This document shows, one piece after another, positions 28,203 through 61,801 of a stretch of 64,000 nucleotides of DNA. The stretch comes from Clostridia bacterium (GTDB taxonomy: Bacteria > Bacillota > Clostridia > Christensenellales > UBA1242): contig JAFSVX010000010.1 in NCBI GenBank assembly GCA_017444785.1, positions 4,648 through 68,647 of the forward strand, written 5' to 3'. Within the stretch, counting starts at the first letter, position 1. The number at the start of each line of letters is the position of its first letter. Both the position numbers and the translations under genes were made by a program. A model generated the notes under the pieces. The model did no database searches, was not told where the DNA came from, and was given only the letters and a program-made list of their open reading frames with translations.

Positions 28203-28418
28203 TGCAATTTTCTCCTCTATATAATTATTATACAATAAAACTTCAACTAAAATCAAACCAAGTACACATTTTTAACAAATTGTATTAAAAATAATTTATT
28301 TATTCAATGAATATTCCAATTTTTTATAATATAACCAATGAAAAGTTTAAATGCACTACTAAATATTACTTATACCACTATTTTCAAGCCACATAAAAAA
28401 TTAAATATTTTATAAGAA

Positions 28419-28450
28419 CAAAAAAATCCAGGTAAATTATATTACCTGGA
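28419..28450 (-). terminator. Intrinsic terminator at the distal end of the rplQ downstream spacer
   Basis: Minus strand TCCAGGTAA-tataat-TTACCTGGA followed by T8. Confidence 0.6.
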
Positions 28451-28855
28451 ACAAAGGAAAGTGAGATATACGGCAACAACAACACTCCGCATATCTATAA
28501 GTATTATAACATGAATACTTAAATATTGCAATACCCTTTTTAAAATTTCTTTAATTTTTTTACAAATATTTCAGCCCGCTCGCTCACTCGCTGACCTACC
28601 CACCGCATCTTCAGTTATCTTTTTGTTTTATCCTTTAAAAAACCATTTATTATACGCAAAAATATCTGACTAACATTTTTATAATACTACCCAATTCAAA
28701 TAACATTGTTTAAAGACGAACTTATAGTGATAATTATTAAACAAAATCCGTATATGGTTAAATAAAAATGCAGAAGAAGGCATAAAACATATAAAATTTT
28801 ATTTATTCATATAACGTTGTTTAAAGGCGAAAATTGACGATTAGACAAGGCTCAT

Positions 28856-28904
28856 AAAAAAATCCAGGCACGACTTTATTTTCATAAATGAGTGTTTGGA
28901 TTTT
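28856..28904. repeat. Conserved-core hairpin module, copy A
   Basis: A-run, ATCCAGGCAC, core GACTTTATTTTCATAAATGA, GTGTTTGGAT, T-run; two G.U pairs on the plus strand. Confidence 0.8.
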
Positions 28905-29016
28905 GAATATGTTTATTCAAATAACGTTGTTTAAAGGCGAAAATTGTGCTGTTGACTTTTATATTTATTCATATAACGTTGTTTCAGGGTGCAAGTTTGC
29001 GTATATAACAAGGCAA

Positions 29017-29070
29017 CAAAAAATCGCGACGCTCGATTTTATTTTTCATAAATGAGTGTGTCGCGATTTC
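29017..29070. repeat. Conserved-core hairpin module, copy B
   Basis: ATCGCGACGC, core TCGATTTTATTTTTCATAAATGA, GTGTCGCGAT. Confidence 0.8.
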
Positions 29071-29120
29071 GTAGTTAACGCAGTTATTTAATTCACGATT
29101 TACTCAATTCAAATAACGTT

Positions 29121-29248
29121 GTTTAAAGGCGAAAATTGTGCCAATAACGAGGCACAAAAAAATTCCAACGCATGATTTTATTTTCATAAATGAGTGTGTT
29201 GGAATTTTTTTAGTAACATAGTTAGTGGTGCAATTTTCGCCTTTAAAC
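29121..29248. repeat. Complete nested palindrome unit abutting and overlapping the rplQ stop codon (contains hairpin copy C, 29156-29211)
   Basis: Outer arms GTTTAAAGGCGAAAATTGTGCC (29121-29142) and GGTGCAATTTTCGCCTTTAAAC (29227-29248): 22/22 pair on the plus strand with two G.U. Inner ATTCCAACGC/GTGTTGGAAT flanks the conserved core. Confidence 0.85.
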
Positions 29249-29752
29249 CAATTCGACAATAGCAAGTTGTGCATTATCCCCACGTCTTACAGAAGTCTTA
29301 ATAACGCGAGTATATCCACCAGCTGTGCCTTTTTCAGTTGCACGGTTTACATATTTTGGTGCAAGATCTTCAAACAATTTTACGATAAGTGGATATTTGA
29401 TATCCCCTTTTCTTGCCTTGAATGCAGCTTTTTTCTCGCCCTTAACACGTTGTTCTTGGCGATCTTCAAGCATACCAAGTAACTTTCTTCTTGCAGCAAG
29501 TTTTGCAGGACCATCTTTTGAAATTGTAACTTTCTTTTCTTTTCCGCTGGCATCTTTAGTAGCTTTTTCTTCAGTTACAACATCTTGATAGTTCTTCACA
29601 GCCAAAGTGATGCATTTTTCAGCATATCTTGCAGCTGCTTTTGCTCTGTCAAGAGTGGTTTCTATTCTGCCATACCAAAGTAAATCACTTGCAAGTCCGC
29701 TTACCAGTGCAAGTCTTTGGTCTGTTGGTTTACCTAATTTTTGTGTATTCAT
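29243..29752 (-). CDS. rplQ: 50S ribosomal protein L17 (169 aa, with internal/C-terminal expansion)
   Basis: QRLALVSGLASDLLWYGRIETTLDRAK... and GGYTRVIK; last gene of the alpha operon. Confidence 0.95.
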   Translation of the reverse strand: MNTQKLGKPTDQRLALVSGLASDLLWYGRIETTLDRAKAAARYAEKCITLAVKNYQDVVTEEKATKDASGKEKKVTISKDGPAKLAARRKLLGMLEDRQEQRVKGEKKAAFKARKGDIKYPLIVKLFEDLAPKYVNRATEKGTAGGYTRVIKTSVRRGDNAQLAIVELV

Positions 29753-55659: not shown

Positions 55660-56802
55660 ATGGCAATTTCAGTTGACTTTAAAGATCTTATAAATAAAGA
55701 CAAAGATGCATATGACATCATTGACATCAGAAGCAGTGATGACTTTGATTTTGGACACATTCCCGGCGCAATCAACATACCTGAAACAGTGCTTGAAAAC
55801 TTTTCAAAACTGAATAAAAACAAAGAATACTATATCTGTTGCAAAAGCGGAGTGAAAAGCGAAGATGTTGCAGACACTCTTTGTGAAAACGGATTTAAAG
55901 CATTCAGCCTTAATGCCGGTTATATTGGTTACTTGCGCTCTCAAATAAAAGAGGTGAAAAATGGCACAATTGCCAGCAATGCAGAGCTCAGCCTTCAAAA
56001 AAAATTCAGAAAAGAAATACTAAGTAAGTTTTTAAAAGCAATCAAAACCTATGACCTTATCCAGCCAAACGACAAAATTGCAGTCTGCATTTCTGGTGGA
56101 AAAGACAGCTTCCTTATGGCAAAACTTTTTCAGGAGCTTTTGCGCTTCACTGAAATTCCTTTTGAAGTGGTATTTTTGTGCATGGATCCGGGATACAGCA
56201 AAGAAAATCGAGAGCTTATTGAAGTCAACGCAAAAAACCTGAACATTCCCCTCACCTTCTTTGAAACTGACATTTTTGACAGCGTAGTCAATGTGGACAA
56301 ATCCCCTTGCTATCTTTGTGCAAGGATGAGGCGTGGTCATCTTTACAGTGCTGCCGAGAAGCTTGGTTGCAATAAAATAGCCCTTGGCCACCACTTTGAT
56401 GATGTGATTGAAACAATACTTATGGGCATGCTTTATGGTGGACAAATTCAAACCATGATGCCAAAACTCCACAGCGACAACTTTGGAAACATGCAGCTTA
56501 TTCGCCCACTCTATCTTATTCGTGAAAAAGATATCAAGCACTGGCGCGATTATAATAATCTTCACTTTCTTCAATGCGCCTGCAGATTCACCGCAACTTG
56601 CTCTATTGATGGGGGAAATGACCAAACTGCAAGCAAGCGCAAAAAGGTCAAACACATCATCGCAAACATTGCCAAAGACGATCCTTGCATAGAGCAAAAC
56701 ATTTTCAAAAGCATAGAAAATGTCAACCTTGCCACCGTCATCGCCTATAAAGACAAGCACGGCACCCACCACAGCTTCCTTGATGATTATGATGAAAAAT
56801 AA
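55660..56802 (+). CDS. Rhodanese domain fused to TtcA-like PP-loop tRNA thiolase
   Basis: N-terminal rhodanese (IIDIRSSDDFDFGHIPGAINIP, active-site CCKSGVKS). C-terminal part has SGGKDS PP-loop and CYLCARMRRGHLY, as in TtcA. Confidence 0.7.
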   Translation: MAISVDFKDLINKDKDAYDIIDIRSSDDFDFGHIPGAINIPETVLENFSKLNKNKEYYICCKSGVKSEDVADTLCENGFKAFSLNAGYIGYLRSQIKEVKNGTIASNAELSLQKKFRKEILSKFLKAIKTYDLIQPNDKIAVCISGGKDSFLMAKLFQELLRFTEIPFEVVFLCMDPGYSKENRELIEVNAKNLNIPLTFFETDIFDSVVNVDKSPCYLCARMRRGHLYSAAEKLGCNKIALGHHFDDVIETILMGMLYGGQIQTMMPKLHSDNFGNMQLIRPLYLIREKDIKHWRDYNNLHFLQCACRFTATCSIDGGNDQTASKRKKVKHIIANIAKDDPCIEQNIFKSIENVNLATVIAYKDKHGTHHSFLDDYDEK

Positions 56803-56815
56803 AATTTAAGTTATA

Positions 56816-56845
56816 AAAAATGTAAGACGCCTGTCTTACATTTTT
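56816..56845. terminator. Intrinsic terminator after the TtcA-like gene
   Basis: TGTAAGAC-gcct-GTCTTACA flanked by an A-run and a T-run. Confidence 0.8.
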
Positions 56846-56858
56846 ATTTTCCAACTCA

Positions 56859-56897
56859 GTGCACAGAGGAAATATTGGGAAGGGTGCCTCTGTGCAC
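56859..56897. repeat. GC-rich 11-bp hairpin without U-run
   Basis: GTGCACAGAGG-17 nt-CCTCTGTGCAC, immediately downstream of the 724-aa LRR gene stop. Confidence 0.6.
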
Positions 56898-59348: not shown

Positions 59349-59442
59349 ACAATTTTTATCAATTTTGACAAAATTTTTATGAAATTTTTCGCCTCTCTAC
59401 CGAACCGGCGAAGAAAACTCGCCGCATCTTTGGCAAAATTTA

Positions 59443-59516
59443 TGTATATAACAAGGCATAAAAAAATTCCAACGCTCGATTTTATTTTCATAAATGAGTG
59501 TATCGCGATTTTGTAG
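59443..59516. repeat. Conserved-core module, copy D (arms no longer complementary)
   Basis: Close to 28999-29074 by eye (roughly 85-90 percent). However the 5' arm ATTCCAACGC is of copy-C type and the 3' arm GTGTATCGCGAT is of copy-B type. Confidence 0.75.
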
Positions 59517-59570
59517 TATATACATATAACGTGAATTAAGGTGAAAATTTTGATGCAGAAGAAGGCACTA

Positions 59571-59620
59571 AAAAATCCCAGGCAAGCGCATATTTACATA
59601 CGTAACTGTCTGGGATTTTT
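59571..59620. repeat. Hairpin module, copy E (variant core)
   Basis: ATCCCAGGCA/TGTCTGGGAT arms (one G.U on plus) around AGCGCATATTTACATACGTAAC; preceded by ATGCAGAAGAAGGCA, also seen at about 28768. Confidence 0.7.
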
Positions 59621-59648
59621 ATAGTAACAAATTTCTTTTTCACGTCAA

Positions 59649-59790
59649 TTCATACAAATAACGTTGTTTAAGGTTTAGAAAATGTGCAATAAGAAAGAAA
59701 CAAAAAAGTTCCACGCCCGATTTTACTTTCGTAAATGAGTGTGTGGAACTTTTGCAGTTTCTGCACTTAGTGTGCGTTTTGTAAGCCTTA
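59649..59790. repeat. Complete nested palindrome unit abutting the rplA stop codon (copy F)
   Basis: Box TTCATACAAATAACGTTGTTTAAGG; outer arms 59670-59701 / 59757-59789; inner AGTTCCACGC / GTGTGGAACT around CCGATTTTACTTTCGTAAATGA. Confidence 0.8.
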
Positions 59791-60468
59791 AACTTTGACT
59801 TTAATTCCTGGGCCCATTGTAGAAGCAACAACTATACTCTTTAAATATGTTCCCTTTGCAGCTTGTGGTTTTGCTTTAACAATTGCATCAAGAAGCACAT
59901 CAAAGTTCTCTTGAAGTTTCGCAGCACCAAAGCTCTTTTTACCGATAACGCAGTGAATGATACCAAATTTGTCAAGACGATACTCAACTTTACCAGCTTT
60001 GATATCCTTTATTGCTTTTGCAACGTCAGGTGTAACTGTTCCACTTTTTGGGTTTGGCATAAGACCACGAGGTCCAAGAACTCTTGCAGCTCTACCAACA
60101 ATACCCATCATGTCAGGTGTTGTAACGCAGGCGTCAAAGTCAAGCCAACCTTCTTTAACGATTTTATCAACCATTTCTTCAGCACCAACATAGTCAGCAC
60201 CTTCAGCTTTGGCGATATCAGCCTTATCACCTTTTGCGATAACAAGGACTTTCTTTGATTTACCAGTTCCGTTTGGAAGAACTATTGAACCTCTTACTTG
60301 TTGGTCAGCGTTCTTAGGGTCAACGCCAAGCTTAATATGAACTTCAATAGACTCATCAAATTTTGCAGTTGCAGTTTCAACAGCAAGGGCAAGACCTTCG
60401 TTCACATCATACTGCTTTTGAGCTTCGATTTTTGAAGCAGAAGCGTTATAATTTTTTCCGTGTTTCAT
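59788..60468 (-). CDS. rplA: 50S ribosomal protein L1
   Basis: 226 aa; [15 protein letters not shown]... conserved L1 sequence. Confidence 0.97.
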
Positions 60469-60914: not shown

Positions 60915-61148
60915 ATTCAATTCTCCTTTAAGTTTTTCTGTGGTCTGTGTGAGGCATACAAAATTTACCTCTGCCACATATATTTAAAACATTTAGCTTA
61001 CACCCTACTGCAAGTCAAATGATTTAAAACTAAATAATTTATTTCAATCCATTCTCGAATATAAATATCGATAACGGGATTTAAAGGCTAAATTCAGATT
61101 AAGAACAATCTTATTTACTAGAATTCATAGATTTAATTACGCATTTAG

Positions 61149-61264
61149 GGCGTCAGAATGGTGCAATAAGAAAGAAACAAGAAAGCTGAACGCACGACTT
61201 TATTTTTATAAACGAGTGTGTGAAACTTTCGCAGTTTCTGCACTTAGTGTGCCGTTATCACGCC
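61149..61264. repeat. Nested palindrome unit abutting the nusG stop codon (copy G, inner stem decayed)
   Basis: Outer arms GGCGTCAGAATGGTGCAATAAGAAAGAAAC / GTTTCTGCACTTAGTGTGCCGTTATCACGCC; core GACTTTATTTTTATAAACGAGTG; ends 1 nt before TAA 61265-61267. Confidence 0.75.
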
Positions 61265-61801
61265 TTAAATTACTTCGATTTGGGCGAAGTCAAGGTCAAC
61301 CGGCGTCTGACGTCCAAACATCTCTACCGAAACCTTGCATTTTTGATTAGCAGTGTCAACTGAAAGGACATCACCAACGAAACTCTCAAGTGGACCAGCA
61401 ATAACTTTAACTTTATTGCCAACCTCAATTTTGAGGTCAATAACAATCTTTTCAAGTTGCATCTTTCTTACTTCCTCATCAGGAAGTGGAAGAGGTCGTC
61501 CCGCAGGGCCAACGAATCCAGTAACTCCACGAGTGTTTACAATTGTGTGCCACAAATTGTCAGTATAGCGCATCTTGATAAACACATAGCATGGAAACAT
61601 TTTTCTTTGCACAACTTTTTTCTTGCCATTTTTCTCTTCAATGGCATCTTCCATAGGTATCTTTACTTCAACAATGAAATCTTGAAGTTTGTTATGGTCG
61701 ATTGTCTTATAAAGATTCTCTTGAACCATACTTTCATAGCCAGAATAAGTGTGAAGCACATACCACTTTGGATCTTCTTTTAAAACATCACTATCACTCA
61801 T
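61265..61801 (-). CDS. nusG: Transcription termination/antitermination factor NusG
   Basis: 178 aa; WYVLHTYSGYE NGN domain and C-terminal KOW. Confidence 0.95.
   Translation of the reverse strand: MSDSDVLKEDPKWYVLHTYSGYESMVQENLYKTIDHNKLQDFIVEVKIPMEDAIEEKNGKKKVVQRKMFPCYVFIKMRYTDNLWHTIVNTRGVTGFVGPAGRPLPLPDEEVRKMQLEKIVIDLKIEVGNKVKVIAGPLESFVGDVLSVDTANQKCKVSVEMFGRQTPVDLDFAQIEVI

Follow-up and report, generated by a model that had tools for sequence, protein, structure and literature searches.

An apparently undescribed family of mobile hairpin repeats of about 128 bases at gene stop codons in Clostridia, with related copies in a Bacteroidota lineage

The L17 downstream element (L17DE RNA motif, Rfam) is a conserved structure located directly downstream of rplQ, the gene encoding ribosomal protein L17. 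Here we describe a hairpin, which we call a rod, that lies at the end of rplQ in a 64,000-nucleotide stretch of DNA from a Clostridia bacterium (NCBI GenBank assembly GCA_017444785.1, contig JAFSVX010000010.1, positions 4,648 to 68,647 of the forward strand; hereafter the window). Several classes of bacterial repeat invite comparison with it. Miniature inverted-repeat transposable elements (MITEs) of bacteria that fold end to end include ERIC/IRU, Correia/NEMIS, RUP and YPAL (PMC2229807). Repetitive extragenic palindromes (REPs) and REPINs are thought to move as single-stranded DNA (ssDNA) by means of a single-copy domesticated HUH enzyme, RAYT (TnpA_REP) (PMC3116915, PMC6006769). The IS200/IS605 elements, including their gene-less derivatives, are characterized by strand-specific hairpins, an adjacent base-paired target and orientation-specific insertion without classical target duplication (PMC5027513, PMC3201880, PMC5934647).

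The palindrome at rplQ is best explained as the newest, gene-proximal copy of a family of non-coding rods of about 115–130 nt. Comparison with related loci shows that rods are inserted, multi-copy DNA that varies between near-identical strains and that, in the Clostridia lineage, prefers TA-flanked stop codons, mostly of the form RTT-TAR. Apparently, this family of mobile hairpin repeats of ~128 bases has not been described before. Rfam gave no match at the gathering threshold for the window and 11 further loci, and at E ≤ 10 only generic long-hairpin microRNA-precursor models, far below threshold; the literature on the motif or on stop-codon-associated repeats yielded only general papers on MITEs, REPs and IS200.

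The hairpin at rplQ and the anatomy of the family

The following features make up the gene-proximal copy and its host gene.

29121–29248, plus strand (the better-folding, functional strand): complete rod-like hairpin element, the gene-proximal copy at rplQ, recognized by its fold and a covariance-model (CM) match
29121–29143, plus strand: 5' gene-distal arm, beginning GTT-TA-AAGGCG, from the dot-bracket fold; the same arm sequence occurs again at 28819 and 28929
29226–29248, plus strand: 3' gene-proximal arm, holding the reverse complement of the last rplQ codon GTT and the stop TAA (29243–29245), from sequence and fold
29156–29211, plus strand: inner hairpin composed of A7, a co-varying stem, the conserved apex, stem and T7, terminator-like on both strands, from fold and alignment
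29174–29197, plus strand: conserved apex motif GAYTTTAYTTTYRTAAAYGAGTGT, with tandem G.A/A.G, a Y.Y mismatch, a 5-bp stem and a tetraloop, from alignment
29105–29120, plus strand: unpaired leader CAATTCAAATAACGTT 5' of the rod, present in one subfamily only; in the sense of the gene it is a tail after the rod
29243–29752, minus strand: rplQ (L17, 169 aa), with its stop and last codon within the rod; open reading frame (ORF), with Pfam PF01196 found on homologues

On the plus strand, 29121–29248 forms a complete, unbranched, end-to-end hairpin of 128 nt, in which positions 1–23 pair with 106–128 and arm positions 19–20 form a tandem U.G/G.U. An earlier note on this DNA, made without database searches, had described arms at 29121–29142 and 29227–29248 that pair on this strand, with the TAA stop and last codon of rplQ inside the 3' arm; the arm sequences are as it quoted, the fold agrees, and the position of rplQ on the minus strand places its end there. 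The RNA minimum free energy (MFE) is –61.6 kcal/mol for the plus strand and –49.8 for the minus strand (–40.4 and –33.7 with DNA parameters); the plus-strand value corresponds to z = –12.4 against 200 dinucleotide shuffles, and the rod scores 90.9 bits in the CM search. The better folding of the plus strand, also claimed before, holds equally for the two other complete rods of the window, on rplA (–57.6 plus, –37.2 minus; –30.6 and –21.1 with DNA parameters) and on nusG (–47.5 plus, –31.7 minus; –23.2 and –14.6 with DNA parameters). The common gene-side ending GCC(T)TTAAA(C/T) reported for these three loci is present in their sequences. A proposed local pairing of GTGCC with GGCAC, giving two mutually exclusive folds, fared less well: only the rplQ copy has it, the other aligned family members lack it, and neither the MFE nor the centroid fold uses it. 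A riboswitch-like pair of exclusive folds was therefore rejected as peculiar to this copy and not conserved.

Across the family, rods are 115–131 nt long, with arms paired from the very ends over 22–23 nt and outer arms of 20–25 bp. The copies have the 24-nt apex GAYTTTAYTTTYRTAAAYGAGTGT in common, with variant apexes in some relatives. From its base upwards, this apex consists of a conserved C-G, G.U, C-G stack, a variable mismatch, the tandem G.A/A.G, a pyrimidine-pyrimidine mismatch, a 5-bp stem (in which U-A is replaced by C-G in half of the copies) and a tetraloop. The G.U adjoining the apex, found in 22 of 23 copies, is the inner plus-strand wobble (CGC/GTG) that the earlier note had already considered conserved. 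The stem beneath the apex comprises 9–13 bp of subfamily-specific sequence in which pairing is maintained, and outside it lies an asymmetric internal loop with conserved letters, YRAGRC on the 5' side and GTAAC-R on the 3' side. One subfamily has an unpaired leader TTCAWATAACGTT 5' of the rod, which in the window occurs solely beside rods. Conservation peaks at the centre of the rod and is lowest at its termini. No conserved ORF was found in the rods, an ATG being replaced by ACG in the rplA copy.

The structure is borne out by the alignment of 23 copies: 94.7% of the cells are paired, as compared to 74.7% in shuffles and 35–60% when the partners are slid, 82 double-change cells were observed versus 25, and compensatory changes occur at 11 of the 19 inner pairs. 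The pairing of one strand is under purifying selection.

The exact apex was found in only 2 of about 185,000 species representatives, i.e. 'Clostridiales bacterium MAG-R002' and 'Bacteroidota bacterium MAG096' (phylum as named in the record), and in six metagenome contigs, while variant apexes occur in further relatives. Copies of the Bacteroidota type keep the apex and the GTAAC loop, and have unrelated arms (GGTGATCTCTAAAAA...). The exact apex is present in no viral contig and no plasmid matched the rods; a phage or plasmid origin was rejected on these grounds.

All 16 full rods that were compared strand against strand fold 9–20 kcal/mol better on the strand carrying the apex motif. In addition, the differences between the two arms of 21 rods comprise 92 transitions of the G.U type versus 36 of the A.C type (binomial p = 8e-7, a value that is indicative only, as the copies are related). 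The strand preference first noticed at rplQ therefore extends to the full copies as a group. It is present whichever way the Bacteroidota-type copies face their neighbours, including copies that are sense to them; being independent of gene orientation, it is a property of the element itself and fits a single-stranded form. Mutation bias was rejected as the source of the wobble excess, since it needs C>T changes on the template strand and hence a positive GC skew of the plus strand, whereas the skew is negative, and since the asymmetry also exists in the Bacteroidota copies that are sense to their neighbours. Of the two substrates originally proposed, an antisense RNA or an ssDNA of the IS200/IS605 kind, what stands is the single-stranded form; a plus-strand RNA gene and membership of IS200/IS605 are not supported. 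We infer that selection acts on a single strand of fixed polarity, and for this intermediate ssDNA is a better guess than RNA.

Insertion sites, orientation and arrays

Related genomes provide both filled and empty sites (loci fetched for comparison are numbered L002, L003 and so on). At the empty rplQ sites L020/21 and L029/30, from relatives with L17 83% and 88% identical, the gene ends in GTT TAA TATTAACC... or GTT TAA TTTTTACG..., followed by an ordinary terminator. The nusG site is empty in L022 (ATT TAA TTTGG), and the rplA sites are empty in L022, L024 and L025. Filled sites are found in the window and in L003, L016, L018, L026, L027, L032, L033 and L035. In the empty relatives the native terminator lies 15–50 nt past the stop; at filled sites a plain terminator is missing. 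The occurrence of both kinds of site implies that the rod was inserted and is not ancestral gene sequence. The earlier note had asked whether relatives might carry the terminal sequence at rplQ without any element; in the orthologous rplQ ends compared here only GTTTAA is native, and AGGCGAAAATTG... is not ancestral.

Turnover at rplQ is rapid. At least five subfamilies occupy the rplQ stop among relatives, and different subfamilies sit on the same stop in L003, in L016/17 and L018/19 (where the stop is now TAG), in L033/34 and in L035. Going outward from rplQ, the array of L027 (L17 99% identical) consists of a complete rod of the tccaggcac type and then a unit designated unit 3 below, whereas that of the window consists of a rod of another type, unit 3, a lone distal arm and a truncated tccaggcac unit; L032 (L17 95% identical) has a third arrangement. 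Such differences among close strains indicate that the locus turns over on the timescale of strains.

Among the 11 full rods listed for the Clostridia lineage, nine extend over the stop codon of a convergent gene, with an overlap of 1–18 nt (6 nt in the three window copies), and the remaining two (L005b and L007) are also antisense to their neighbours. The genes concerned are unrelated, and include rplQ, rplA, nusG, rpoC and spoIIP, as well as genes for a pseudouridine synthase, a P-type ATPase and a CofE-like ligase; pnp is a further gene at which a copy of the family is located. In the window, every gene next to the three loci is on the minus strand. In L002, two rods 1.3 kb apart have opposite orientations, each toward its own gene, and the sign of the GC skew on the rod strand differs between loci; this indicates that orientation is set by the gene, not by replication. 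The folding strand in the window has a negative GC skew and is thus lagging-strand sequence, i.e. the leading-strand template. A replication-strand explanation of orientation was rejected, as it is contradicted by the GC skew and by the opposite pair in L002. Copies of the Bacteroidota type are less strictly placed: only four out of nine adjoin a stop codon, and they may face either way relative to their neighbours.

Nearly all copies in both lineages have TA at both feet (TA-RGG...CCY-TA). At stop codons this TA provides the first two bases of the stop and the first purine of the element supplies the third, which explains the switch from TAA to TAG where the element begins with G (L016 and L018 versus the empty L020). 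The host bases ahead of the TA are mostly RTT: all three rod-bearing genes of the window end in RTT TAA, versus about 10% of the 67 window genes. Moreover, the distal foot is complementary to the last codon of the host (AAC/GTT at rplQ and rplA, AAT/ATT at nusG), with further matches in L002 (ATC/GAC, by a plus-strand wobble) and in L018 and L026 (GA/TC). The host RTT-TA lies before the element in the sense of the gene and is complementary to the distal foot, a geometry unlike that of IS608. In L002, a change of the foot TA to CA is compensated by TG on the opposite arm, suggesting selection on pairing. In the same locus (L002:644–703), an rpoC-like ORF ends in ...PVSR*, with its last two codons and stop within the rod (GTT TCA AGG TAA), and is extended by two codons; the element has thus altered the C-terminus of a core protein. 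The tetranucleotides flanking the rods are inverted in two loci, L008 and L016, and direct in a third, L011.

A separate observation concerns the nusG end of L024 (L024:4528–4600), where the gene ends in ATC TAG and is directly followed by an unrelated hairpin (GCACGCGTACGTAT...ATACGTGTGC). Other hairpin families may therefore share the stop-codon niche.

Besides the rplQ copy, the window inventory of three full rods and about seven partial units contains the following elements, all on the plus strand.

59666–59793, plus strand: complete rod on the rplA stop (GTT TAA)
61143–61270, plus strand: complete rod on the nusG stop (ATT TAA), with a 5' arm that begins ATTTAG, fitting the local last codon
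28964–29104, plus strand: array unit 3, older, with leader, 5' arm GTTTCAGGGTGCAAGTTTGCG, inner hairpin (tcgcgacgc type) and 3' loop as far as GTTA, without the gene-proximal arm; the unit is also present in strain L027
28912–28963, plus strand: array unit 2, leader and 5' arm only
28802–28911, plus strand: array unit 1, with leader, 5' arm and inner hairpin (tccaggcac type), without the 3' arm; this type is the complete gene-proximal copy in strain L027
28695–28718, plus strand: most distal remnant, a leader-like stretch and the beginning of a 5' arm
59533–59651, plus strand: older rod, now degenerate, from a subfamily that has another apex, its strand asymmetry gone (CM 41 bits); the subfamily also occurs at rplQ in L033/L034
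59432–59532, plus strand: partial chimeric unit, inner-stem halves from different subfamilies, without the outer 3' arm
61070–61095, plus strand: remnant of a 5' arm (GATAACGGGATTTAAAGGCTAAATTC), from sequence

The array at rplQ spans about 28695–29248 and is nested, 29121–29248 being its gene-proximal copy. Units stacked in the same orientation are found there, downstream of rplA (59432–59793), and in L003, L014, L016, L018, L027 and L032. Every one of the truncated units (at least ten) misses its gene-proximal side, and none its distal side. Moreover, the one proximal arm adjoining the gene is, in several arrays, complementary to many distal arms, i.e. those of units 1, 2 and 4 in the window, of three units in L014 and of four or five in L018. 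Random decay would not predict such a pattern, which instead indicates directional growth by the addition of units at the gene end. Chimeric partial units, combining inner-stem halves of different subfamilies, occur at 59432–59532 and at L003:6689–6776, indicating gene conversion between copies.

Some arrays have peculiarities of their own. In L014:125–352 (PDWI01042888.1) one arrayed rod is split exactly in its apical loop by an insert of ~140 bp, which has its own inverted repeat (CTGATAATCA...TGATTATCAG) and a duplication of ACTTTT at the junctions, so that the conserved apex can itself be a target of another small element. L018 (10640–11700), and also L019, contain a 1.3-kb array after rplQ built of composite repeats of ~290 bp, each ending in a plain terminator and a distal arm that is complementary to the only gene-proximal arm; nested within are GC-rich CCGAGCCTT modules, which are also found at nusG in L026. 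The metagenome contigs L028 and L031, from close relatives, end exactly within the proximal arm (…GGTTTAAAGGCGAAAATTG); apparently, short-read assemblies are interrupted by the rod repeats where the alpha operon ends.

Two other segments of the window were noted. Between the rod array and a patatin-like gene (about 28400–28530, minus strand) lies a good sigma-70-like promoter, TTGCAA-17-TATAAT, followed by a segment of ~80 nt that ends in a hairpin and a T-run (CCAGGTAATATAATTTACCTGG TTTTTTT). Strain L027 conserves this arrangement, which may represent a leader/attenuator or a small RNA. A weak CM match at 56801–56863 (26 bits) was rejected as a family member, since it represents an ordinary bidirectional terminator between convergent genes.

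How the rods may spread

The rods are probably non-autonomous mobile hairpins, similar to MITEs or REPINs, that are moved by an enzyme acting in trans. According to this model, a rod would spread as a single strand of fixed polarity (ssDNA, less likely RNA), the fold of which places its two feet side by side. The enzyme could use the conserved apex and internal loop as its handle, and the distal foot may pair with the last codon and TA of the host, helping to choose or to hold the target. Repeated arrivals build the arrays, with only the gene-proximal unit retaining its proximal arm. The A-run/stem/T-run core of the Clostridia copies probably doubles as a bidirectional terminator of the host gene, which would account for the loss of native terminators from filled sites.

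Several points weigh against this model. A scan of about 50 ORFs, in the window and near the copies, revealed no transposase, HUH enzyme or reverse transcriptase, so that the enzyme is purely hypothetical. Conservation is central and the termini are least conserved, contrary to the pattern of a classical MITE bound by a transposase. The antisense orientation of every Clostridia-type copy, and the placement of most of them on stop codons, are not accounted for by a simple TA or RTTTAR target, and there is no evident stage at which the template strand of the gene is single-stranded. The flanking TA is indistinguishable from an extension of the palindrome, and in the informative cases, L008 and L016, the flanks are inverted and not direct. 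Finally, the one-sided unpaired leader/tail of 16–25 nt in one subfamily is not predicted by symmetric cut-and-paste.

We also considered a new type of mobile element, in which leader, distal arm and core integrate as a single strand beside a complementary 'anchor' composed of the proximal arm, the stop and the last codon. In this case the target would be chosen by nucleic-acid pairing of the foot and arm rather than by recognition of DNA by a protein, and possible enzymes would be an HUH nickase, or a reverse transcriptase copying the 3' untranslated region (UTR) of the host mRNA into antisense cDNA. Integration beside an anchor would explain the arrays with one proximal and many distal arms, the truncation on the gene-proximal side and the match between foot and last codon; still, we regard it as an unlikely, if serious, candidate.

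Equally a minority candidate, of small but real probability, is a place for the rods among palindrome-associated elements or REP/REPIN substrates of a Y1 HUH transposase (TnpA/RAYT), moved as one strand to a base-paired target. The strand-specific DNA hairpin, its conserved features as a possible protein handle and the same-orientation tandem arrays at one target would all suit such an origin. So would the fixed orientation with a foot complementary to the last codon and TA, which recalls the pairing of guide and cleavage site in IS608 (PMC3201880, PMC5934647), and Y1 HUH genes with 'atypical secondary structures' have been described in Bacteroidetes, and class 1.1 genes in Clostridia (PMC6006769). 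However, the ends of the IS200/IS605 family are two different subterminal hairpins and not one end-to-end inverted repeat, the 5' GTAG and the REP-centred conservation of REPs (PMC6006769, PMC3116915) are not seen in rods, and a search of the window and of 40 ORFs near copies revealed no Y1 gene. Orientation is not bound to replication either, as the opposite rods of L002 illustrate, and the folding strand in the window, being lagging-strand sequence, is the opposite of that in IS608/ISDra2 (PMC5027513). The rods might instead be cis-elements of the host, i.e. bidirectional terminators or 3'-UTR stabilizers of highly expressed operons that evolved and were duplicated in place, their repetition reflecting convergence or local duplication. 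The A7 and T7 flanks of the Clostridia-type inner hairpin on both strands are in line with this, as are the absence at filled sites of the plain terminator that empty relatives carry 15–50 nt past the stop and the position of copies, which is always at the 3' end of a gene. Yet the inner hairpin would suffice for termination, leaving the 22-bp compensated outer arms, the 24-nt apex shared by two phyla and the folding of the antisense strand unexplained; the Bacteroidota-type copies have no T-run past the stem on either strand, and cores are near-identical at unrelated genes and different in close strains. A simple terminator scan of 28600–29400 found none, the loop of the inner hairpin being too large for the scan. 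We consider an origin as host terminators improbable.

A gene for a structured antisense small RNA, expressed from the plus strand and acting on the 3' end of the gene or in trans, would account for the constant antisense orientation of the Clostridia-lineage rods, and the G.U pairs, the tandem G.A, the conserved G.U beside the apex and the strong covariation are typical of RNA. Such an RNA is hard to sustain, since no promoter-like site was found ahead of the rods (by a consensus scan of the window copies and by inspection of the aligned leaders), since the neighbours at the window loci are on the minus strand, and since a transcript would end at T7 ahead of the 3' arm, precluding the outer stem. 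Leaderless subfamilies share no upstream sequence, copies of the Bacteroidota type lie either way relative to their neighbours, no Rfam family matches, and filled and empty sites, arrays and truncated copies are typical of mobile DNA; we therefore think an RNA gene quite improbable. Even less credit is due to the possibility that rods are integron-like attC sites, the folded bottom strand being recombined by an integrase and the arrays being cassette arrays. They resemble attC as imperfect palindromes of similar length that overlap the stop codon of an ORF, fold on the antisense strand and form same-orientation arrays growing at one end, but the R''/R' core boxes (RYYYAAC...GTTRRRY) are absent from the base of the stem, which reads TA-RGGCG...CGCCY-TA; the apex is invariant where that of attC is variable, the 'cassettes' have no ORFs, the adjacent genes are essential and chromosomal (rplQ, rplA, nusG, rpoC), and there is no integrase in the window. 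This makes the attC explanation very improbable. A small hydrophobic peptide encoded on the gene strand (MKIKSCVGIFLCLVIGTIFAFKQRYLN), e.g. a type I toxin with the palindrome as its regulatory fold, is least probable of all and was rejected. Although a minus-strand frame is open through the rod in three copies (ending in ..KQRYLN, ..KQRCLNKL and ..QRYLYELT), its ATG is ACG in the rplA copy, a Shine-Dalgarno sequence is lacking, other copies contain frameshifts, and the residues change completely where the stem co-varies while the pairing is kept.

Significance and comparison with known elements

If our favoured model of a non-autonomous hairpin moved in trans is true, uncultured Clostridia of the gut or rumen, together with a Bacteroidota lineage, harbour an active and as yet undescribed hairpin-repeat family that rewrites the 3' ends of core genes (rplQ, rplA, nusG, rpoC). 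Rods would then be able to replace the stop codon, extend the ORF and displace the native terminator, and close strains, about 99% identical at the locus in other respects, would differ in them. They would be useful as sensitive strain markers, as a likely cause of assembly breaks at ribosomal operons, and as a natural experiment on the conversion of a selfish hairpin into a terminator of its host. No known transposition pathway explains why rods combine placement on stop codons with a gene-determined orientation and with folding of the antisense strand, which thus points to an enzyme or intermediate worth seeking.

Rods differ from the L17DE in that they match no Rfam model at threshold, even with the search relaxed to E ≤ 10, and fold on the opposite strand; they also occur after many unrelated genes and are missing from close relatives. 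With attC sites they share the conservation of structure over sequence, a folded strand antisense to the upstream ORF, the overlap with the end of this ORF and array growth at one end. Rods, however, have no R/L boxes, cassette ORFs or integrase, their apex is conserved and their hosts are essential core genes, so that the resemblance is one of position and polarity only. A strand-specific hairpin and orientation-specific insertion are common to rods and IS200/IS605 elements, as may be a base-paired adjacent target and insertion without classical duplication, but the latter have two distinct subterminal hairpins instead of one 60-bp rod, and an orientation tied to the lagging-strand template, whereas rods follow the gene, with the template strand of the gene as the folding strand. 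Membership of rods in IS200/IS605 is therefore not supported.

Like REPs and REPINs, rods are hairpin-forming, non-autonomous and intergenic, are clustered into arrays, and can be present as different families in one genome. Rods lack the 5' GTAG at their feet, and in contrast to a REPIN, which consists of two conserved REPs around a variable spacer, it is the middle of the rod that is conserved; moreover, REPINs have not been reported on stop codons in a single orientation.

The likeness to MITEs is extensive: rods are shorter than 200 bp, non-coding, AT-rich and multi-copy, have terminal inverted repeats and TA termini, form a long stem-loop by pairing of their 5' and 3' ends, and have both filled and empty sites. 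Insertion downstream of genes is another common property, and orientation-dependent effects have been reported for ERIC (PMC2229807). A parent insertion sequence (IS) or transposase with matching terminal repeats was found neither in the window nor in the fetched loci. Rods depart from MITEs in that the centre (apex and internal loop) is conserved while the termini vary and co-vary, and in the strict orientation and mostly stop-codon placement seen in one rod lineage. They differ furthermore in that their arrays keep the proximal arm only in the gene-proximal unit, with a distal foot that fits the last codon of the host.

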